This document shows, piece by piece, positions 17,501 through 61,697 of a stretch of 64,000 nucleotides of DNA. Positions within the stretch are counted from its first letter, which is position 1; every line of letters starts with the position of its first letter. The position numbers and the translations under genes were made by a program. The notes under the pieces are model-generated. The model did no database searches. It was not told where the DNA came from and saw nothing but the letters and a program-made list of their open reading frames with translations. The DNA lies in the NCBI GenBank assembly GCA_049694315.1, contig JBAVQU010000021.1, positions 20,372 to 84,371 of the forward strand, given 5' to 3'. This DNA comes from Candidatus Zixiibacteriota bacterium (GTDB lineage Bacteria; Zixibacteria; MSB-5A5; SM1-73).

Positions 17501-17690
17501 AAATCCCCCTTAATCCCCCTTTGCTAAAGGGGGATTTCTACTCAGGCTGATTGTCGGGCAGCTTGCCAAATGGGTCGCAACCGGAATTTACAAATCTTCG
17601 TGCGGGGCTGGGAGCCCCGCCTACGAGCTTGCTGGACTTGCTGGGCTGGCTGGGCTTGCGGATAGCTGTTTTTCATTTTTCCAGTCGTCC
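17501..17690 (+). repeat. GC-rich palindromic repeat element, copy A. The palindrome (AAATCCCCCTT...AAGGGGGATTT) is followed by GCTGATTGTCGGGCAGC and GGGTCGCAACC.
   Basis: It shares the palindrome, the GCTGATTGTCGGGCAGCT segment and the G(G/A)TCGCAACC(G/A)GA.TTACAAA segment with copy B at 18166-18352. It also contains a perfect hairpin GCGGGGC-TGGGA-GCCCCGC. Confidence 0.5.
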
Positions 17691-17709
17691 TGCTGCATGA
17701 ACTATAACA

Positions 17710-17925
17710 TTCAAACCAAAGGACATAGCGAACTCCCGATACTGATGTTACTGACATTTCTGGCGTTACTGGCGGTTGTTTTAATTTTTTTCCATTCCTA
17801 CTGAAGTATGAGCTTTGCTGTTCATACAAAAGGACATAGCGGATCTGCGATACCGGTGTTTCTGGCGCATCTGGTGCTTCTGGTGTTTGTTTTTATTTTT
17901 TTTCACTTTCATCGCAAGTGATTGA
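17710..17925 (+). repeat. Two tandem ~100-bp units at ~75% identity. Each begins AAAGGACATAGCG and encodes a ~20-aa hydrophobic peptide (17745..17804 and 17856..17921).
   Basis: Unit 1 encodes MLLTFLALLAVVLIFFHSY and unit 2 encodes (V)FLAHLVLLVFVFIFFHFHRK. The units align along their whole length. Confidence 0.5.
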
Positions 17926-17956
17926 AGTTTAATACATTAGATATTGTGTCGGGTGA

Positions 17957-18021
17957 ATTCAAAGTTCAAGGTTCAAGGCTCAAAGTTCAAGGTTCAAAAT
18001 TCCAATTCAAAATTCAAAGTT
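17957..18021 (+). repeat. Tandem heptamer array of (RRTTCAA) in about 9 units
   Basis: Reads aattcaa agttcaa ggttcaa ggctcaa agttcaa ggttcaa aattccaattcaa aattcaa. Confidence 0.8.
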
Positions 18022-18165
18022 ACGCATTCCATAAATTCGGTAAGGGTGCATGAACAATATATTCCATCTCCTACAAACAAGCGCGGTATCCGCTTCAACA
18101 TTGAAGCTGTGGCGAATTTGTTTTTTGTGGTAAGAGAGACAACGGGTTAGGTCGTGGGTTTAGAA

Positions 18166-18352
18166 CCCCCTGAATCCCCCTTATCAGGGGGACAACCCCC
18201 TAAATCCCCCTTTGCCAGAGGGGGATTTCAAGTCAAGCTGATTGTCGGGCAGCTGTCCCGCCCTTCGGGTCTGAGCCTTCCTTCGATACTGAGTCTCAGG
18301 ACGAAGTGCAGGGTCGAAGACCAAAAGCGGGATCGCAACCAGACTTACAAAC
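18166..18352 (+). repeat. GC-rich palindromic repeat element, copy B, with internal insertions relative to copy A
   Basis: Contains CCCCCTGAATCCCCCTTATCAGGGGG, then AAATCCCCCTTTGCCAGAGGGGGATTT, then GCTGATTGTCGGGCAGCT, and about 75 bp later GGGATCGCAACCAGACTTACAAAC. Confidence 0.5.
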
Positions 18353-20430: not shown

Positions 20431-20739
20431 TCAGCGGCGGTGCGCCAGCGTCGTCCGCTGCAACGATTTGTTAGGCTTTCTCGCCTTTGTTCTCTGCTTT
20501 TTGGGCAGCAGTGGAATTAAACAACGCAAAGCCCGATTCACAGATTCCGAGTCTGGGAAATACGCTCGAATATCCGGTTCCAGGACAACTGCACCTTTTT
20601 TTGGCATCACGTCCTTAACAACAGTTGTACCATCCACCTTATGAATAGCGATGGTATACCCGGCTTGCATGGCTTTGTGGTGCTTGCCACGCACTCCACC
20701 CCTAAAATTATATTCCGTACGCATATCGTTGTCCTCCAC
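20431..20739 (-). CDS. brnA: BrnA-family antitoxin
   Basis: Has the C-terminal BrnA motif VLEPDIRAYFPDSESVNRALRCLI. It lies immediately downstream of a BrnT-like toxin gene. Confidence 0.55.
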   Translation of the reverse strand: MEDNDMRTEYNFRGGVRGKHHKAMQAGYTIAIHKVDGTTVVKDVMPKKGAVVLEPDIRAYFPDSESVNRALRCLIPLLPKKQRTKARKPNKSLQRTTLAHRR

Positions 20740-20749
20740 CTATACTATT

Positions 20750-21037
20750 TTAGTCACTGCCTTCTTCATAAAGTTTCCGCTCCGATGACGTTGCCTTACG
20801 ACTACTGATAATACGTATGTTGGAGCCTCGTTCGGTATAAACCACTACCAGTATGTGACCCTTATCAGAACTGCCAATGTCAATATACCGCTGCTCCTCC
20901 ACTGAATGGCCTGGATCAGGCATCGTAATTGAAAAGGGATCAACGAAAACCGTTGTGGCTTCATCAAAACTGACTTGGTGCTTTTTGAGATTCGCTTTGG
21001 CTTTTTCTTCATCCCACTCAAAGCTCAGTTTCATCAT
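20750..21037 (-). CDS. brnT: BrnT-family (DUF497) ribonuclease toxin
   Basis: Reads MKLSFEWDEEKAKANLKKHQVSFDEATTVFVDP...ILVVVYTERGSNIRIISSRKAT, which matches the BrnT signature. Confidence 0.65.
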   Translation of the reverse strand: MMKLSFEWDEEKAKANLKKHQVSFDEATTVFVDPFSITMPDPGHSVEEQRYIDIGSSDKGHILVVVYTERGSNIRIISSRKATSSERKLYEEGSD

Positions 21038-21288
21038 GGCTCCTTTGAACCCTAGCGTGTCGTTTAAGCATAACCGGCCGCGGTTCACCCGCCGCGCGGG
21101 TGCGGGATAGAGCTTCTGCTACGAGACCAACTACAAGCGCGTGTAGCCGCCGATTCGCGCGCGCCATAGCGCAGTCGGGTGCAAGCGCTGGTTAGGTGGC
21201 CCGCTTGGGCTTTACGTATGCCCGCCAGGTCCCCTTGACCTGGTGGGGAGCTCCTATCAGGTCGGGGACCTCAAGAGGTACTATTTTC

Positions 21289-23383: not shown

Positions 23384-24391
23384 TCAACTCCAAATTTCTG
23401 ATTTTGGGTCCCGGGTCATGAGTTCGGCCATTGCCTGATCTGGCCTTTTGTTTTCAAACAGCACCCGGTAAACCTGTTGGGTGATGGGCATTTCCACTTG
23501 ATGTCTTAAAGAAAGCTGATAGGCCGACTTGGTGGTCCTTATTCCCTCGGCCACCATGGTCATCTTTGCCTCAACTTCCTTCAGGGTTCTCCCCTTGCCG
23601 ATCTCCTCTCCCACAAACCTGTTCCGGGAAAACTGGCTGATGCAGGTAGTCACCAAATCCCCAAGCCCCGAAAGCCCGGCGAAGGTCTCACGCTTCGCCC
23701 CCAGCTTTTCACCCAGCCGGATGATCTCTGCCAACCCCCTGGAGAGCAATGCGCCTTTGCTATTATCCCCCAAGCCCATTCCGTCGCATATGCCGGACGC
23801 GATGGCAATGACGTTTTTGAGCGACCCTCCCAACTCCACTCCGATCACATCGCTATTGGTATAAACCCTGAAATATGCAGTCATAAAAGTCAGTTGGACT
23901 TCTTTGGCGACGCTCTCTCTGAATCCAGCCACCACTACCGTCGTGGGTATTTTTCTGGCCACCTCCTCAGCATGGCTGGGGCCGGAAAGGGTGATGATCC
24001 TTTCATGAAGCTCCGACGACAGCTCTTGCTTCAATACCTCCGACATTCTCAAAAGCGTGTCGTTTTCAATTCCCTTGGCCAGGTTGACTACAATCGGATT
24101 CCTCACTTCTATGGCACTGATCTTTTTTGCTACCTCCCTGACCGTGTGCGAAGGAAGCGCCAAAACCAAGATGTCAGCGTTTGCGACCGCAGGCTCGAGA
24201 TCACCCGCAATTTCCACTCGATCGGGGATGACGACTCCCGGAAGTTTCTGCTTATGTTCTCTTCGTGCGCGCAGATTCCCCATCTCTGCCGGATCAAACT
24301 CCCACAACGTCACCTTGTGTCCGTTGTGGTCGAGAAGCGTGGAAATGGCAATCCCCCACCCACCTGCACCCAATACTGCGATTTCTGCCAT
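23384..24391 (-). CDS. gpsA: NAD(P)H-dependent glycerol-3-phosphate dehydrogenase
   Basis: Has the Rossmann fold (MAEIAVLGAGGWGIAIS) and a GpsA-like body; it is adjacent to plsY. Confidence 0.85.
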   Translation of the reverse strand: MAEIAVLGAGGWGIAISTLLDHNGHKVTLWEFDPAEMGNLRARREHKQKLPGVVIPDRVEIAGDLEPAVANADILVLALPSHTVREVAKKISAIEVRNPIVVNLAKGIENDTLLRMSEVLKQELSSELHERIITLSGPSHAEEVARKIPTTVVVAGFRESVAKEVQLTFMTAYFRVYTNSDVIGVELGGSLKNVIAIASGICDGMGLGDNSKGALLSRGLAEIIRLGEKLGAKRETFAGLSGLGDLVTTCISQFSRNRFVGEEIGKGRTLKEVEAKMTMVAEGIRTTKSAYQLSLRHQVEMPITQQVYRVLFENKRPDQAMAELMTRDPKSEIWS

Positions 24392-24393
24392 TA

Positions 24394-25026
24394 CTAAAGA
24401 CCCTTTCGCCGGAACTTGTTCTCTGTGCCGGCCAGCAATCTCTTGATGTTACTTCTGTGATTGAAAAAAATGAATATGGTTAGAAACGCCATCATAGCGA
24501 TGAGCTGACCTGGCACCTGACTCCCAAGATAATATTTCTCAAACAGCAACGCAAACAATATAAACACGGTGGCAGAAAGCGAGCCTAAGGAGACGTACCG
24601 GGTGATGGCCACTATTAACACAAACAGAATCAGACTCATACCCATCTCCACCGGTATCAGGGACAGAAGAGCACCCAGCGCGGCGAGAATGCCTTTCCCC
24701 CCTCTGAATCCGAAGAAAATAGGAAACACATGGCCCACCACCACACATATGCCGGCGATGATTTTGAGATTAATTGGGTCCAGGTGCGCGGAACCAAGAG
24801 AGATTCTAGTCACCAAGAGCACCGCCGCCATCCCCTTGGCGACGTCAAGAATCAGTACCATTAGCGCGGGGAGAGGACCGATGACGCGATAAACGTTGGT
24901 GAACCCGGCATTCTTCGACCCGTACTCCCTGATGTCAATGCCCCTCCGGACTCGGCTGATGATAAGGCTGAAGGGAATAGAGCCTAGTGCGTAGCTCAGA
25001 ATCGCTATTAGGATGGCAGAAGCCAC
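24394..25026 (-). CDS. plsY: Glycerol-3-phosphate acyltransferase PlsY
   Basis: Reads [13 protein letters not shown]...[13 protein letters not shown], which is the PlsY family signature. Confidence 0.85.
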
Positions 25027-25210
25027 ATTCCTCCTTTCCCATTTTCACAAACGGGCCTGGGAGCAAAGTCCAGAGAAAATCCGTGTAGCCCTCCACTCTC
25101 CCGCCGATATTATGAACCAGTCCATGCCCTTCCACAAATTCCCCCGCAAATCGAAAGGAGATGAAAGCATCGTAACAGACAAACCCAAGATAATTCACAT
25201 GCAGAAGCAA
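25027..25210 (-). pseudogene. Partial duplicate of the 5' end of the downstream GT-C-like gene (25471..27033)
   Basis: It encodes [47 protein letters not shown], against [47 protein letters not shown] in the full gene. DNA identity is obvious (ATCGAAAGGAGATGAAAGCATCGT.ACAGAC). Confidence 0.55.
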
Positions 25211-25470
25211 AATAAGCCATTTTGTTAGTATGAGGCCTATGCTGATGGATTCTCTTTTTCATTTGGCACTTTTCAGGAATGAGTCATGAGGCTTTGGCCT
25301 TCGGAAGCAAAAGATGGACCTTTGAGTTGCCCCTCGATCATGGCACCAGCAAGACCGAAATCAACACTTGTTCAGAGGGGGCAATTATGTGCTTAATAGT
25401 TTACTCGACTATAGCTCCAATTTCCACGGCAACAACATCGTTCTGTGGTCGTTAGCTTATTACTCTTGTT

Positions 25471-27033
25471 TCATCCGGAGTCGAATTCCCGCAAGCTTAA
25501 AAAATAGAAATACCTGGTTTCATTTTCCGATATCCTAATAAGGAAAACCTCAACCTTGTACCCGGCACTTGACAGCGGCTCCTTGACCTCCCATTGCCAT
25601 GTGGGTTTGCTGCGCTCCTCATAGATTTTGGGCTGTCCTATGATGTAAGTAGGCCTTCGAGATGCAAGGAACTCATCTGTCACCAATTCAGTATGGCCTG
25701 GTTTCGATACTTCCCTATATGTGAAATCCTTTTGAGAGTCAGACGCCAGAGCCAAACCGAGTTCATCGATAGCATAAAGCTCCGAGTAATAAGGTATTGC
25801 CCCAGCAGCGGTGGTGGATAAGCTTTCACTCGGTTTGGCAATGCTTTTGAACATGAGTCCCGCCTTTGACCAGACGCGGACGTAATCTCTTAACAATCCT
25901 ATACTGTCCATTCCTGTCCGACTCCACATTTTGTTGCTTCCTTGGGATGGGTAAGCCAGGAAGAATGCGCACAATCCTATCAGCAGAATCTCTGAAGTGA
26001 ATAAAGCGGTTTTATGTCCTGTTTTTGAAAGAGGGTGTAGATAATGATGCATTCCTCTGAATCCCTCCTGAACCAGAAAGAAAAACAAAGGCAGAATGGG
26101 CACTAAGAACCTGAACATGTCCATGAAGTCCCCTCCAACATACACTACATAAAGAGAGAAGATCAATATCATGGAGGCAAAGTAGGAAATGACTGTTTTC
26201 AATCTATGGTTCAATCTAACAGCTTCGCCTAGAAACACCAGCGGGATCATCAAAACCGGTATCCAAAACCTCTTGAGGAAATCAAAAAGATAGGAAAGAC
26301 CTTGGCGATAAAGCATCTCTCCTCCCATCTTCACATAAAATGTATTAGGCAGAAGTCTTCCATAATAGGACCACCGCCAAAAGAAGTAGACAAGAAATGG
26401 GACCAGAAAGGAAATGGTCCAGATCAACACGTTTCTCGGTCTGATCTTCTTGCTGACGGCGGAAACATAGAGCAGGCAGACGAAGGTTGTTCCGGCGAAG
26501 AGCAGTCCATCCAAACGAGTCATGCAGATCAGACTGAAGGTTATTCCGGAGAAAGCGAGGCGTTTTGGTTCGGTCATCCCCGAAAGAAAAAAGAACGAGC
26601 CTAAGAGAATCAGAAAGGTATAAAGTGACGTCTCCAAGCCTCCAGTTGACCAGGCGGCGTAAGCTCCACAACAGGCTAGCAGAAGCGGAGCCAAATAGTT
26701 GAAAAGACTTTCTCTCGGGTAAAGCCATCTGTTCAGTCGTAACAACAGCAAAACTGTGCCTAGGCTAAACAGTGCCCCCAAAACCTGTGAAACCACAACT
26801 ACGTCCAATCCCATTTTCATGAATAGGCTTACAAGCAAAGTCCATAGGAAATTGGTATACCCCTCCACCCTTTCGCCAATATTGTAGACCAGACCATGTC
26901 CCTCCACAAAATTCTTGGCATATCGAAAGGAGATGAAAGCATCGTCACAGACGAACCTGAGATAATCGATGTGTAAGAGGAGTATAAGAAATATGACGAC
27001 GGTCAGGCCTATCGAAATACAAGCTTTCTTCAT
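25471..27033 (-). CDS. Polytopic membrane protein, a putative GT-C-fold glycosyltransferase (ArnT/PMT-like)
   Basis: The 520-aa protein has at least 10 TM helices. Its N-terminal cytoplasmic-face motif DDAFISFRYAKNF.EGHGLVYN..ERVEGYTNFLW resembles lipid-linked sugar transferases. Confidence 0.5.
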   Translation of the reverse strand: MKKACISIGLTVVIFLILLLHIDYLRFVCDDAFISFRYAKNFVEGHGLVYNIGERVEGYTNFLWTLLVSLFMKMGLDVVVVSQVLGALFSLGTVLLLLRLNRWLYPRESLFNYLAPLLLACCGAYAAWSTGGLETSLYTFLILLGSFFFLSGMTEPKRLAFSGITFSLICMTRLDGLLFAGTTFVCLLYVSAVSKKIRPRNVLIWTISFLVPFLVYFFWRWSYYGRLLPNTFYVKMGGEMLYRQGLSYLFDFLKRFWIPVLMIPLVFLGEAVRLNHRLKTVISYFASMILIFSLYVVYVGGDFMDMFRFLVPILPLFFFLVQEGFRGMHHYLHPLSKTGHKTALFTSEILLIGLCAFFLAYPSQGSNKMWSRTGMDSIGLLRDYVRVWSKAGLMFKSIAKPSESLSTTAAGAIPYYSELYAIDELGLALASDSQKDFTYREVSKPGHTELVTDEFLASRRPTYIIGQPKIYEERSKPTWQWEVKEPLSSAGYKVEVFLIRISENETRYFYFLSLREFDSG

Positions 27034-27057
27034 TTACCGACCTACATGAAGTAAGAT

Positions 27058-27115
27058 TTTAAATCTTGAATCTTGAACCTTTGAACTCTCAAACTCTTAA
27101 GCTTTCGAACCCATA
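27058..27115 (-). repeat. Tandem TTCAARR heptamer array in minus-strand orientation, 25-80 bp upstream of the GT-C-like gene start
   Basis: The minus strand reads ttcgaaag cttaagag tttgagag ttcaaagg ttcaaga ttcaaga ttt. This is the same unit as the array at 17957-18021. Confidence 0.7.
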
Positions 27116-27131
27116 TTTCCTCATCCTCCGA

Positions 27132-27413
27132 TTAATCTAACCTAGTATACAATATCCACACTTCTTTTTTCGCTCCCCGATCAAAATAAATTTCGAAGAC
27201 TTCCTCCTCTACGGTCAATACTCGATAGTAATTTCTATGTTTTCTCTGCCACCATCTTTTTCTTTTGGCACCCGAGCCAGAATAGCTGTAATCCGGCCAG
27301 AAGGCAATCACCTCCTTAATCTTATATTCTTTGCCTCTCCAGATGAAGGAGACGGGGTTTCTGGTCTGCTCGTCTCGTGTGACCTCTATTTGATCGGAAT
27401 AGAATTCAGGCAT
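27132..27413 (-). CDS. Hypothetical protein of 93 aa
   Basis: The ORF has no recognisable motifs (WRGKEYKIKEVIAFWPDYSYSGSGAKRKRWWQRKHRNYYRV). It lies between the GT-C gene and der. Confidence 0.35.
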   Translation of the reverse strand: MPEFYSDQIEVTRDEQTRNPVSFIWRGKEYKIKEVIAFWPDYSYSGSGAKRKRWWQRKHRNYYRVLTVEEEVFEIYFDRGAKKEVWILYTRLD

Positions 27414-27458: not shown

Positions 27459-28772
27459 TCAGTCCCTCTTCTTTATCTTAATCCTGATCGGATTTCCCAA
27501 GAATCCAAAATGCTCCCGGATTTTGTTCTCCAAGTACTTCAAATATGGCTTTTGCAGAAGCTCCGGATGGTTGCAGAAGAACACGAAGGTAGGAGGTTGG
27601 ATGCCGGTTTGCGTGACGTAATATATCTTGACATATCGTCCTTTGACCGAAGCCGGAGGCTTAGCTTTTATGTCCTTTTCCAGCTTCTGATTCAACTGGC
27701 TGGTCTCTATTCTCTTTTTCCTTTCATTGTAAACCTGCAAGACCAAGTTCATAACCGTCCGTACTCTTTGCTTGGTCTTGGCTGAGATATAAATAAGCGG
27801 CACGAATCTGAGCAGCGGCGCTTCTTGCCTCAAGGTCTTGGTATAAAGATCTGCCGTCTTACCGTCTTTCTCCAAGAGATCCCATTTGTTCACGGCTATC
27901 ACCATTCCTTTTCGCAGATCAAAAACTTCCCGGGCGATTTTGACATCCTGGCTTAAAAGTCCCACCTGAGCCTCGGTCAGAATCAGGGCCACGTCGCATC
28001 TCTCGATCGATCTTAAGGTCCTCAGGGTGGTGTAGTATTCCAAACTCTCTGTGATTTTGGCCTTGCGCCGCAGGCCGGCGGTATCGATCAGGGTAAAGGA
28101 CCGACTGTCGATTTCGATTTCCGTGTCGATTGCATCTCTGGTGGTTCCCGGCGTTCCGGTAACGATCAGCTTTTCTTGACCTAAGAGGGCGTTGACGAAG
28201 GAGGATTTCCCTACGTTCGGTCTTCCGATCACCGCCACTTTGATGCTCTCCTTCTCCTCGGGGAGAGTGGACTCCTCCGGCAGACTCGAAGTCATCAGAT
28301 CCAGAAGGTCGCCGGTGTTTCTGCCGCTAATAGCGGAAACCAAGACGGCTTCCCCCAGACCCAGCCTATTCAACGAATAGGCCTCAGCCTCGTCCTTGGT
28401 CGTATCCACTTTGTTGGCTACCAGAAGAACTTGCTTTTTGGTCTTCCTTAACCGATGGGCTATCTCCAAATCCACCGACTGCGCCCCCACCTTTGCATCC
28501 ACCAGGAAAAGCACCATATCCGCTTCGGCAATGGCTATCTCTGCCTGAGCTTTCACCAATCTTTCGATTTCGGTATTACTGGAAGGTATGTATCCACCGG
28601 TGTCAATCACATAAAACCCCTTTCCATTCCATGTGGTAAAGGCGTAGTTCCGGTCTCGGGTGATTCCCGGCTGGTCATCCACCACCGCAATGCGCTTCTT
28701 CAAGAGGCGGTTGAACAGCGTGGATTTTCCTACATTCGGCCTGCCGATTATGGCAACGATGGGAACGGACAT
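27459..28772 (-). CDS. der: Ribosome-biogenesis GTPase Der (EngA), with two GTPase domains and a KH-like domain
   Basis: Reads IVAIIGRPNVGKSTLFNRL...DTGG and, in the second G domain, KVAVIGRPNVGKSSFVNAL...DTAG. Confidence 0.9.
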   Translation of the reverse strand: MSVPIVAIIGRPNVGKSTLFNRLLKKRIAVVDDQPGITRDRNYAFTTWNGKGFYVIDTGGYIPSSNTEIERLVKAQAEIAIAEADMVLFLVDAKVGAQSVDLEIAHRLRKTKKQVLLVANKVDTTKDEAEAYSLNRLGLGEAVLVSAISGRNTGDLLDLMTSSLPEESTLPEEKESIKVAVIGRPNVGKSSFVNALLGQEKLIVTGTPGTTRDAIDTEIEIDSRSFTLIDTAGLRRKAKITESLEYYTTLRTLRSIERCDVALILTEAQVGLLSQDVKIAREVFDLRKGMVIAVNKWDLLEKDGKTADLYTKTLRQEAPLLRFVPLIYISAKTKQRVRTVMNLVLQVYNERKKRIETSQLNQKLEKDIKAKPPASVKGRYVKIYYVTQTGIQPPTFVFFCNHPELLQKPYLKYLENKIREHFGFLGNPIRIKIKKRD

Positions 28773-28921: not shown

Positions 28922-31900
28922 CTATGGGCAGTGGCAACATGGAGGTGGTCCACCTTTGAACAGATAGTTAACGAGGTAGACCACATCGCCAGCATCGACA
29001 ACTCCATTACAAGTGACATCACCCATCCATAAGGGATTCGGAGCAGGACCGCCCTTAAAGAGATAGTTTATCAGGTATACTATATCTCCAGCATCGACGA
29101 TCCCGTTCCCAGTGCAATCACCACTAAGAGCAACCAGCGCACCAATCAAGCCACAGTGGGCTGAGTTAAGAGGTTCACAAGGTGAACCGTGCTGAATATA
29201 ATAGTCACCAGATATAGTTGGCGCACTGTTGCATGATATTGGGTGACAGAACAGGGGATCTGCGGAGATGCTTAATGATTCTTCTGGACAACCGGGACTA
29301 ATGAAAACACACAACTCCCCAAAACCAGAAGCATCCACGTCAGAACAACAGTTACTTGGAATGCTACCATCACAATACCACTCATTTCCATCTACCGAAC
29401 TCGTCGCGCAGTTACCCCAAACTATCGATCTCGTCAAATATGGGTTGCTAGTGTCTAATTGAGAGATTCCGCCACCTCGATTGGCCTTGTTCCCACTAAT
29501 CGTGCAACTGACAATCGTCGGTGAAGAGTTGTTACTGCAGTATATCCCACCACCATCGCCACCATAAGCTTTATTACCGGTGATTACACATTGAATAATC
29601 GTTGGAGAAGCATTGTTATAGCATGCTATTCCACCTCCGTCTGTCGCTCCATTTCCAAGAATCTTGCAGTTTTTAATTGTAGGCGAGGTATCCACACATA
29701 GGATACCGCCACCACGCTGATTCTGGTCAGTCCTCCCATTTATGATAGTGACACCCTCCACAAGTGACCCGGAGCCTTCCTGTGAGTGAAAGAAAAAACC
29801 ACGGTGCGGGATATCAATGTCAACATTAAACGTGTTACGCGAGCAATCTAAAGTACATGCATCAGCCCCGTGCTGCGAACGCACGATAATAGGCTTCGCT
29901 TGGAAAGTAATATCTCTGTTACCATCGCCCCAGAAAGTCCCATCCATAAGCAGAACAGTGTCACAATTACTGGCGGAATCAATCGCGGCTTGAATCGTGG
30001 GGACGTCTCCTGTATGGTCTGGCTTAACGACCCATTTTCGACATACAACTATCGTATCGTAATCATAATAGAAAGGACCCTGTTCAGAAAGCGCTGCTCT
30101 AACAGTAAAGGGGAAAACTCCTGTTTTGGTTGGTGTTCCTGAGATTATGCCAGTGGTATTCTCTAAAGATAACCCATCAGGTAGCTGACCTTCCACGACC
30201 CCGAGTGATGCATTACTAGAACATACGAACACTACGGTGTCCTGATATTGGTAACCGATAACCCCATTTGTTAATGGATTATGGACAAAATGGCACTCGG
30301 TAACCTCGCCCAGAAGCCAATCCAGGCAGATATCTGCTCTGAGAGGAGGTGACGTAAGTGAAGTTTCAAGAACGAAATTTTGATCTCTCTGGTCGTTAAA
30401 AACAGTGAGAGTTTCCTTTGCTACCCCATCGTCCAAGATAATGTCAATAGGCATATGGTAGACTTCAGGAACATAAGGATCTATTGAAGGAGTTTGAGTC
30501 TGTTTAAGATTAAGGAAGATCTTACCGTCGTCTCTGACAAAGAACCAGGACTCGTACACCGGATGATAGTCACTATATATCCATTCATGGAAAAAAGTAT
30601 TAAGACGTGTGTCACCCGTTACGTTAACACACACGTCTCGGAATTGTTCAGTGCTTGCATGGTTCCATTTGTAAGTACTCAAGTATTCGTGCAGAATATT
30701 ATAAAAAACTTGATTGCCTACCCAGTGCCTTAACATGTGAAGCACCCAAGATCCCTTATTGTAAACTCTATGGAGAATTTCCTCGGTAACATTTCCAACA
30801 TATCCATTCTCCAGGTATACTGATCCATGTCCCAAGTAGCGATACCGGTCGATATACCGGAACATTGCATTCAAACCATATTTTTTTCAACCCATATACA
30901 CTCTGAATATCTTGCAAAACCCTCATTGATCCAGAAATGGTTCCATGTGGAACAGGTTACACAATTACCCCACCATGAGTGAGATAGTTCATGGCTCAGT
31001 GGAGTTTGACCATACTGAGTATCGCAAATTGCAGTAATAGTCGGATACTCCATTGCTCCGAGTCTTATTGGAACCTGCATCATCCCGTATTTCTCCATTA
31101 CATATGGTGGGTAGATGCCTGAGTAAGGGTAGGCACCGAAACAGGTTTCGAAAGTATCCAACATTTCCACGACCTTAGGAAAGGAATCCCTTGCGGTAGC
31201 AACATTCTCAGGATAAACATAGAACCATATAGGCATAGTACCGTTTCCACTCTGCAAAATATAAGAAGTATCTAGTCTGACATAATTGGTACAGCCAATA
31301 CCCACTTGGTAGGTCGCAATCGGATAATGCTCTCTCCAATAGCTTGTTTCTCTTCCTCCACTGACGAACTCCATATTGAGTGTTCCGTTTGAAGCACATC
31401 TAAAGTTGTCAGGATAGGTCACCGTCATATAGATAGAGTCTGCTTTGTCCTCCACGCGGTCCTTACATGGCCACCAACGTCGGGCATAAACAGGTTCTGA
31501 CATGTTATAACAGATATCAGTCCTTGCATGAGCACCAAAAATGAATCCAAGCTGAGTCAAAGCGTAACCCGGTTTTCCATGGTAATAGACCGTGACTCTG
31601 AATGTGTCGTTATAATTGTATGTTTGGGGTTGGAAACTGATATCTACAAATGAATCCACTTGGGTACCCGTTGGATTAGCTATCCCCACGACTTTTACTG
31701 AATCGACGTGCATGTAATGGAAGGGATCATAGTCATATCTGTACAAGTCTAGCCTAATAAATGACAGTCCGTTTATTAGGCTTCGTCCTTCTAAATAAAC
31801 CGATCCGTCAATTGCTGAGTTATCAAAGTCCAAATTAAGATTGATTCGATAGAAAAGAGCGTCCCAGTCATCTTGGGAGCTATGATGGTCGCTCAAAACG

Positions 31901-31983
31901 GTGTCTGACGCATTCGCGACATAAGCTGGGAAGATTGAGCCTGCAAATAGCATTAGGCTTGTAATTAAGACCACAGATTTCAT
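28922..31983 (-). pseudogene. Secreted multidomain protein of about 1000 aa with an M1 metallopeptidase domain, parallel beta-helix repeats and C-terminal dockerin-like repeats. It is interrupted by a -1 frameshift in a T7/A7 homopolymer at 30881-30887.
   Basis: Has a signal peptide (MKSVVLITSLMLFAGSIFPAYVANA), a GAMEY motif and HELSHSWWGN-x18-E (the M1 HEXXH-E). After the frame break come Y..KG (VYNKGSW), tandem G-rich beta-helix repeats (GNGATDGGGIACYNNASPTI...) and two dockerin-like repeats (CTGNGIVDAGDIVYLINYLFKGG / CNGVVDAGDVVYLVNYLFKGG). Adding one A fuses the two ORFs as ...WVEKKYGLNAMFRY. Confidence 0.6.
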
Positions 31984-61361: not shown

Positions 61362-61697
61362 CTACCCCCTTGCTCTCCCTTTGCTGCGTCTGGGCATGCT
61401 CTTGTTGGTTTCCGGCTTATTGACGTTAGGAAAGCCGGAGACGGAAGCTTCGTCAGGCGGCTCCTCCTGATTTTCCTTGACTATGCCAACGATCTTGGAA
61501 ACCTCCCCCATGGCGCTGGCCGCAGCCTTTTTGTTTTCCTCTTGGATTTTGAAATATATTTCCTCTCTATGAATGGTTACCTTTTGCGGCGCAATTATCC
61601 CTAACCGTACCTGGCGACCTCGCACCCCCAGGATGGTGATCTTGATTTCGTCTCCGATGGTGACGCTTTCCCCCAGCTTCCGTGTCAATATGAGCAT
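61362..61697 (-). CDS. csrA: Carbon storage regulator CsrA, with an unusually long C-terminal tail making it 111 aa
   Basis: Reads [48 protein letters not shown], the canonical CsrA fold. It is followed by a ~55-aa low-complexity extension. Confidence 0.8.

Follow-up and report, generated by a model that had tools for sequence, protein, structure and literature searches.

What does a short, degenerate tandem repeat do directly in front of a membrane glycosyltransferase gene: does it switch the gene, tune it or travel along with it? The question is raised by a 64,000-nt stretch of a Candidatus Zixiibacteriota genome (GenBank assembly GCA_049694315.1, contig JBAVQU010000021.1, positions 20,372 to 84,371; hereafter the window), in which units with the core TTCAAG lie between a DUF6504 gene and a gene for a 520-aa glycosyltransferase of GT-C type (hereafter GT-C). 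Our preferred reading, to which we give a probability of about 0.5, is that the tract is a simple-sequence repeat (SSR) of 7/8-bp units, that it belongs by inheritance to the 5′ flank of GT-C in Zixibacteria, and that it may tune GT-C expression slowly. From alignments with relatives, we show that the tract changes by whole units or blocks of units, that it has been inherited and duplicated together with the 5′ end of GT-C, and that it persists across deep divergence. Rapid phase variation in this genome is unlikely. Because the tract is short and degenerate, with just two identical adjacent units, a rapid on/off switch is not expected here.

The repeat tract before the GT-C gene

The tract lies in a 98-nt spacer (27131-27034, minus strand) between the DUF6504 stop and the ATG of the 520-aa gene at 27033. 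On the minus strand, this spacer reads TAA-tcggaggatgaggaaatatgg GTTCGAAAGC TTAAGAG TTTGAGAG TTCAAAGG TTCAAGA TTCAAGA TTTAAAA tcttacttcatgtaggtcggtaa-ATG. Its parts, together with a sibling array elsewhere in the window, are listed below; related contigs and lineages are referred to by L numbers.

27111-27131, minus strand: 5′ flank of the spacer, from the DUF6504 stop codon to the first unit
27057-27110, minus strand: repeat tract of seven head-to-tail units, with a period of 8 nt in its distal and 7 nt in its proximal part (read directly)
27110-27101, minus strand: unit GTTCGAAAGC
27100-27094, minus strand: unit TTAAGAG
27093-27086, minus strand: unit TTTGAGAG
27085-27078, minus strand: unit TTCAAAGG
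27077-27071, minus strand: unit TTCAAGA
27070-27064, minus strand: unit TTCAAGA
27063-27057, minus strand: unit TTTAAAA
27064-27085, minus strand: clean core, TTCAAAGG TTCAAGA TTCAAGA, of the same sequence in L002
27034-27063, minus strand: leader block TTTAAAATCTTACTTCATGTAGGTCGGTAA, from the tract to the ATG, alignable with the spacers of L003, L006, L419 and L420
17958-18021, plus strand: sibling array, 9.3 copies of TTCAAAG (Tandem Repeats Finder), within a 750-bp block that is bounded by repeats and lacks annotated genes; no GT-C gene lies nearby

The initial annotation, made from the sequence alone, had put the array at 27058-27115 and 25-80 bp upstream of the start codon. Both placements are right to within a few bases, since the tract as read directly lies 23-77 nt upstream. 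The three units that it quoted are exact on the minus strand, and they are surrounded by four more that are degenerate, so that three of the seven units are clean. The clean core is the only portion of the tract pure enough for slippage, and it contains two identical adjacent units. That the unit is common to the sibling array, as was also proposed, holds true.

The tract is real, beyond what chance would produce. A two-unit pattern, TTCAARRTTCAARR, matched with at most one mismatch at 10 places in the window against 0.82 expected (~12-fold), a number that 0 of 100 shuffles reached, and eight of these ten matches fall inside the two window arrays. By self-match within the 64 kb, the locus ranks in the top 2-3 at lag 7 and first at lag 8. 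It holds 6 copies of TTYRARR in 60 nt, the next-best count elsewhere being 2 (the array at 17958 excepted). Tandem Repeats Finder calls just 27062-27081 at this locus (2.9 copies, score 33). With at least three head-to-tail copies of a short unit, more than expected by chance, the tract is a simple-sequence repeat.

Inheritance and change with the GT-C gene

The closest relative is L002, a JGI metagenome contig with 97.1% identity to the window, gap-free, over 28040-26309 outside the tract. The only indel in this 1.7 kb falls in the tract, where L002 has one extra 8-nt unit (8 vs 7). Besides the indel, the tract differs by 5 substitutions in 54 nt (Fisher p = 0.02), and positions 27056-27034 are the same in both. 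We considered the conserved spacer flanks as evidence of selection and rejected them. They are uninformative on this point because the whole neighbourhood is near-identical in L002 (~97%, and 100% for DUF6504).

Closer comparisons come from near-clonal contigs. The window and the Logan contig L001 have an identical tract, differ at 1 of 6801 bases and probably represent the same strain. The pairs L424/L425 and L003/L004 (100% and 99.995% identical) likewise show no difference in tract length, although as near-clonal pairs they have little power. Exact-protein look-ups for GT-C and DUF6504 returned only the near-clonal Logan contig and L002, and metagenome scans for the tract flanks (both flanks with a variable gap, or the 3′ flank alone) gave 0 matches.

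Among deeper Zixibacteria lineages, the tract is also found in the GT-C spacer of L420 (10.9 units), L421 (4.6), L423 (~3) and L424. In these four, (G)TTCAARR units run in the sense direction, end 27-35 nt before the GT-C start codon and share one layout, with 8-mers (GTTCAARG) in the distal part, 7-mers (TTCAAGA) in the proximal part and a common GTAAR boundary before the first unit. The TTCAAG core is kept in deep lineages and the remainder of the unit drifts. PlsY identity between tract-bearing lineages is 64-77%, and these lineages form no clade. In L424, GT-C is present as three tandem paralogs, and a tract precedes every one of them: two of these tracts are long (21.8 and 28.8 units), and the third is short and lies beside a duplicated 3′ piece of DUF6504. 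One of the L424 duplication junctions lies inside DUF6504. Within one of the long tracts, a 72-nt block is duplicated at 93% identity, and this tract has therefore expanded recently. Whole units are thus gained and lost, as seen in this block duplication, in the 8-nt indel relative to L002 and in a range of ~3-29 units across the five deep lineages that carry the tract.

In the L426-L429 lineage, which has no GT-C at this position, a terminator hairpin follows DUF6504 and the tract is absent. As a separate observation, a 24-nt tandem repeat, GGGTTGAGCGAAGCGAAACGCATA, occupies the der-DUF6504 gap of this GT-C-free lineage. It is present three times in L427 (1446-1755) and twice in L426 (6269-6554), a genuine between-strain difference in copy number, and the DUF6504 protein is identical in both.

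The gene behind the tract and its surroundings have changed as well. The order, all on the minus strand, is der/EngA (27459-28772), DUF6504, the spacer, GT-C, plsY (24394-25026) and gpsA (23384-24391), and the genes from der to SurE keep their order in other Zixibacteria.

27132-27413, minus strand: DUF6504 gene, 93 aa, directly upstream of the spacer, with 0 differences from L002 in 282 nt
25471-27033, minus strand: GT-C glycosyltransferase gene, AftB-like, 520 aa, polytopic, with CDDAFISFRY in the first loop (residues 29-38)
25263-26308, minus strand: divergent segment, made up of the last two thirds of GT-C (its C-terminal part) and the spacer that follows, with 46-65% identity to L002 against 94-98% on both sides
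25035-25262, minus strand: putative relic left by a second, tandem paralog of GT-C, a 5′ fragment aligned to residues 2-75 at 70% amino acid identity

The description of the 520-aa polytopic protein as GT-C-like is borne out by a polytopic N-terminal domain, an acidic DD/DE motif in the first loop and similarity to solved enzymes (AftB, PDB 9dlf, E = 1.2e-11, residues 25-269). Its closest named homologues are all from Zixibacteria. The NCBIfam model for beta-arabinofuranosyltransferase matches at E = 4e-13, far below the cutoff of that model. Because the NCBIfam matches lie far below equivalog cutoffs, the protein is, as judged by these similarities, a distant relative of mycobacterial AftB and not an AftB orthologue.

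A partial 5′ duplicate of the gene had been taken as a sign of current instability. The duplicate does exist (25258-25037 aligns to residues 2-75, E = 3e-26), but it is old, having ~77% nucleotide identity to the live gene and being present in the sister genome too. It has an ATG at 25262 with a frameshift near it, and in L002 it is adjoined by a plsY fragment. We read it as what is left of a second tandem paralog rather than as a recent change; relatives carry 2-3 tandem paralogs that are intact. The drop to 46-65% identity with L002 runs from 26308 to ~25200. The first 725 nt of GT-C have 97.7% identity to L002, and identity is back to ~95% from ~25190, inside the relic fragment; plsY is 93.7% identical overall. 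The divergent segment at 25263-26308 looks like one that has been replaced or recombined.

The GT-C gene is a mosaic, with a constant N-terminal part and a variable C-terminal part. The same pattern is seen in the three L424 paralogs (L424 3104-8584), which share ~87-89% identity over their first 1 kb and have C-terminal parts that do not align. Across Zixibacteria, the number of GT-C genes between DUF6504 and plsY ranges from 0 to 3. The initial annotation had called the locus unstable, possibly phase- or copy-variable. Over evolutionary time this stands, given tracts of 3-29 units, 0-3 GT-C copies and C-terminal divergence; its suggestion of rapid phase variation found no support. What the comparison adds is a suggestive picture of an old, gene-linked, strongly length-variable tract before glycosyltransferases that vary in copy number and appear to swap domains, which hints at repeat-tuned surface variation.

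A bolder version of this picture can be drawn, although we regard it as doubtful. In it, DUF6504 and plsY would flank 0-3 copies of a mobile cassette. Each copy would join a constant N-terminal membrane domain of a GT-C glycosyltransferase to a C-terminal domain that can be exchanged, and the (G)TTCAARG tract would be the part of the cassette that acts as a conserved, mutable expression 'rheostat'. An uncultured phylum that lives freely in sediment would then have a contingency-like locus for surface glycans, perhaps under pressure from phages rather than from host immunity.

A rival reading, in line with the initial annotation, is a true contingency locus. Here, high-frequency mutation within the population would reversibly switch or grade GT-C expression, as in hmw1A/hmw2A of Haemophilus influenzae. 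The target is a surface-glycan enzyme, the tract differs by one unit between near relatives and widely in copy number between lineages, and the combination of one tract per paralog with C-terminal domain exchange is hmw-like. However, the two identical adjacent units of the window compare with 11-63 perfect units in natural hmw tracts, and even the long L424 tracts match their own consensus at just 68-75%. Nor does tract length differ within the near-clonal pairs described above, little power though these have. We consider such a locus very unlikely here.

Two further features of the surrounding DNA were noted. An M1-family peptidase is split over the overlapping open reading frames (ORFs) 30871-31983 and 28922-30874, with matches to Pfam M1 positions 39-109 and 157-218, respectively; beta-helix, He_PIG and dockerin domains are also encoded by the second ORF. 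The split could be due to a frameshift, a pseudogene or an assembly error. Compared with L003, this M1 gene (28922-31983) has been inserted between DUF512 and der. The other feature is a pair flanked by SurE and a phospholipid methyltransferase-like gene, in which a gene for a BrnT-family ribonuclease toxin (20750-21088) is followed by a 102-aa ORF without a Pfam match (20431-20739), which is probably its antitoxin partner.

The unit at other sites and an effect on expression

The unit is not confined to the GT-C spacer. A search for a GT-C relic beside the sibling array at 17958 found none. This array lies in a ~750-bp block (17505-18254) that is bounded by 59-nt direct repeats (17505-17563 and 18196-18254), 90% identical and each with a hairpin, AATCCCCCTTTGCnAnAGGGGGATT. 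Inside the block, two tandem 111-nt units precede the array, and each of them carries a small hydrophobic ORF (17697-17804, 35 aa; 17808-17921, 37 aa) with the common motif TKGHS...IFFH.

In a scan of one genome per species, three consecutive TTCAARR units occurred at ≥120 loci, against a chance expectation of ~17 by our own estimate under uniform base composition. Among the matches listed, hosts include Nostocales, Bacteroidales, Acidobacteriota, Desulfobacterales, Verrucomicrobiota, Patescibacteria and others. By crude gene calls, ~119 of 142 arrays are intergenic. Arrays in L032, L041, L073, L090 and others (Acidobacteriota and other phyla) are often inverted pairs 10-40 nt apart that would form long hairpins, and many of the arrays in other phyla adjoin arrays of other heptamers (TTCAGGG, TTTCAGG, GGGGAGA). 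Like the known dispersed intergenic heptameric SSRs, the window unit recurs at several intergenic sites, and the window tract is an ordinary, short and degenerate member of that class. Some possible properties of the unit were considered and rejected: a strand-specific function of the unit class (orientation is unbiased relative to flanking genes), a special status of TTCAARR (composition-matched controls are about as frequent) and a Chi-like orientation to replication (the two window arrays point opposite ways while GC skew keeps one sign).

How could such a repeat matter for GT-C? As the comparison shows, the tract grows, shrinks and re-homogenises through replication slippage and unequal recombination, in whole units or blocks. 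It fills 55 bp ending 23-30 nt before the start codon. An effect on expression is probable because the tract occupies the segment where a gene-proximal promoter or leader must lie. In the reading that we prefer, tract length and sequence would then probably set the strength of GT-C expression, and the tract may be a knob by which evolution slowly tunes an envelope glycosyltransferase that diversifies fast. One candidate promoter overlaps it.

27056-27085, minus strand: candidate sigma-70-like promoter, TTCAAA-18 nt-TAAAAT, with 9/12 consensus matches, overlapping the tract

Several observations weigh against this reading. The candidate above is the sole sigma-70-like match and is at chance level (1 found vs a shuffle mean of 1.4); the earlier placement of the array in a promoter region is unsupported. 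Mixed 7/8-nt spacing speaks against a strict structural role. The tract is dispensable, because four lineages (L003, L006, L419 and L422) retain GT-C without it; L003, L006 and L422 share a different upstream block, ATTTGCRC. The unit also forms arrays at unrelated spacers, namely at 17958 in the window and in the NAD kinase-RecN spacer of L003. In other phyla, arrays in co-directional spacers are oriented 32 sense vs 35 antisense, with the same balance for G-ending units, and no GT-C genes were found beside TTCAARR arrays. Composition-matched control heptamers gave 66 and 105 loci in viral contigs vs ≥120 for TTCAARR.

Much of this would be expected if the tract were a neutral by-product, that is, a self-perpetuating slippage product, of a repeat type favoured by replication in this phylum, that hitch-hikes with the gene and has no effect. 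The similar frequency of control heptamers, the strand-unbiased arrays at unrelated spacers in many phyla, the intact gene in tract-free lineages and the degeneracy of the units all fit this account, as does the fact that the analogous heptamer repeats of Xanthomonas and Nostoc have no found function (PMC4692102). Against it, spacer, orientation and distance to the ATG have all been maintained although PlsY is only 64-77% identical, and the tract has been duplicated three times along with the gene. Moreover, a tract that ends so close to the start codon would be unlikely to have no effect at all on transcription or translation. We treat neutrality as a tentative possibility that deserves serious weight.

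Two more specific modes of action were weighed alongside slow tuning. In the first, the tract would be an operator array, with each 7/8-bp unit bound by a small DNA-binding protein; by polymerising along the units, this protein would control the promoter of GT-C. The conserved TTCAAG core within an otherwise drifting unit is in keeping with this, and so is the position of the tract against a -10-like element (TAAAAY/CATAAS) that can be aligned across relatives. A palindrome at the proximal end of the tract, AAGATT-TAA-AATCTT, is kept in L002 despite a central substitution. However, a candidate protein is missing. No cognate regulator is encoded nearby, the neighbours being Der, DUF6504, GT-C, PlsY and GpsA. 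DUF6504 was rejected as a tract-reading protein: its model is all-beta (predicted local distance difference test, pLDDT, 84), it has no match to a nucleic-acid-binding fold, and it occurs without the tract. An operator array is unlikely on this balance. At 61362-61697, the window also encodes a 111-aa homologue of CsrA, in which the CsrA domain (residues 1-53) is followed by a long C-terminal extension. No link between CsrA and the array is suggested, because the repeat units carry GGU and not the GGA typical of CsrA sites.

In the second, the tract would be transcribed, either between the cistrons of der-DUF6504-GT-C or as a 5′ leader, and would act by its RNA structure or by being processed by a nuclease, in the manner of the hairpin in the hmw 5′ leader and RNase III. 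No terminator-like hairpin was found after DUF6504 in the spacer 5′ flank (27111-27131), and the tract before GT-C is always in the sense orientation. Further, sense-strand RNA of the long 8-mer tracts of L424 (2860-3075 and 6705-6940) forms long periodic hairpins (z = -2.95 and -4.16), since G-U pairing allows GRRUUC to pair with itself. This property is impossible for the antisense strand, and the window and L420, with their 7-mer tracts, lack it. Structure is not conserved, however: the RNA of the window spacer folds no better than shuffles (z = 0.12), and for the L420 tract, every one of 200 shuffles was more structured than the real sequence (z = +2.73). Rfam gave no match in the spacer, only a tRNA elsewhere, and arrays of the unit in other phyla are strand-unbiased. 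An RNA element is thus highly improbable. A leader peptide in the spacer was rejected, as L002 conserves neither of the short ORFs that follow GGAGG (11 aa and 5 aa) and its frame reads differently.

Comparison with known repeat systems

Ribbon-helix-helix proteins offer one model of repeated short operators. The omega protein of inc18 plasmids (pSM19035) binds contiguous 7-bp heptads, and MetJ (at metboxes) and ParG bind 8-bp boxes. The tract resembles these operators in its contiguous 7-/8-bp units, in their variable number and in its place beside a promoter-like element. It differs from them in that no cognate regulator gene was found at the locus and in that 7- and 8-bp spacing are mixed within one tract.

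The closest likeness is to the intergenic heptameric SSRs of bacteria. Heptameric SSRs are over-represented in bacterial intergenic regions, where their positions are kept between related species while their length varies, and polymerase slippage has been invoked as the cause (PMC4692102). Members of the class include GGGAATC in Xanthomonas and GGGGAYT in Nostoc (Rehm 2015, PMC4692102). Like them, the tract has a 7-nt period in a short head-to-tail array (usually 3-5 units in the class), is non-coding and has a unit found at many genome sites. It likewise holds the same intergenic position in related genomes with varying length and sequence, and its unit forms inverted pairs in other phyla. 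Slippage as the attributed origin and an unproven function are further points in common. Unlike them, TTCAARR is not G-rich and has no G-quadruplex potential, periods of 7 and 8 nt are mixed, and the tract in the GT-C spacer has been kept across family-level divergence and duplicated with a gene family. Cyanobacterial heptamers of the short tandemly repeated repetitive (STRR) type are described by Mazel 1990 (pmid 2110150), and Mrazek 2007 (pmid 17485665) provides a general survey. Relative to STRR1-3 of heterocystous cyanobacteria (CCCCAGT, TTGGTCA, CAACAGT), TTCAARR in Zixibacteria is an analogue and not a member. A search for literature on repeats in Zixibacteria found none.

If the tract is neutral, it still marks a recombination-prone envelope locus, and it cautions against calling every upstream repeat a phase switch. 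If it does tune GT-C, the relevant comparison is with H. influenzae, in which an upstream heptamer SSR sets the expression level of the duplicated surface-protein genes hmw1A and hmw2A (PMC12721329). The hmw repeat, (ATCTTTC)n, differs in that its 11-63 units are perfect, its hypermutation has been measured, its promoter is mapped, its right arm is G-rich and it depends on RNase III (PMC12721329, PMC8262952). The window tract, with 7 degenerate units, 2 identical neighbours and no partner arm, is not the long, pure tract of an hmw-type contingency locus. What the two systems have in common is a heptamer repeat directly upstream of genes for surface structures, with a tract of its own for each paralog, wide variation in repeat number between genomes and exchange of the C-terminal or binding part between copies; the long L424 tracts can also fold into a long RNA hairpin. 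Repeat-driven surface variation is known almost only from host-adapted pathogens. If our reading is correct, free-living, uncultured bacteria would be using this evolutionary device too, and there would be a concrete functional case for the excess of heptamer repeats between bacterial genes, which has long gone unexplained.
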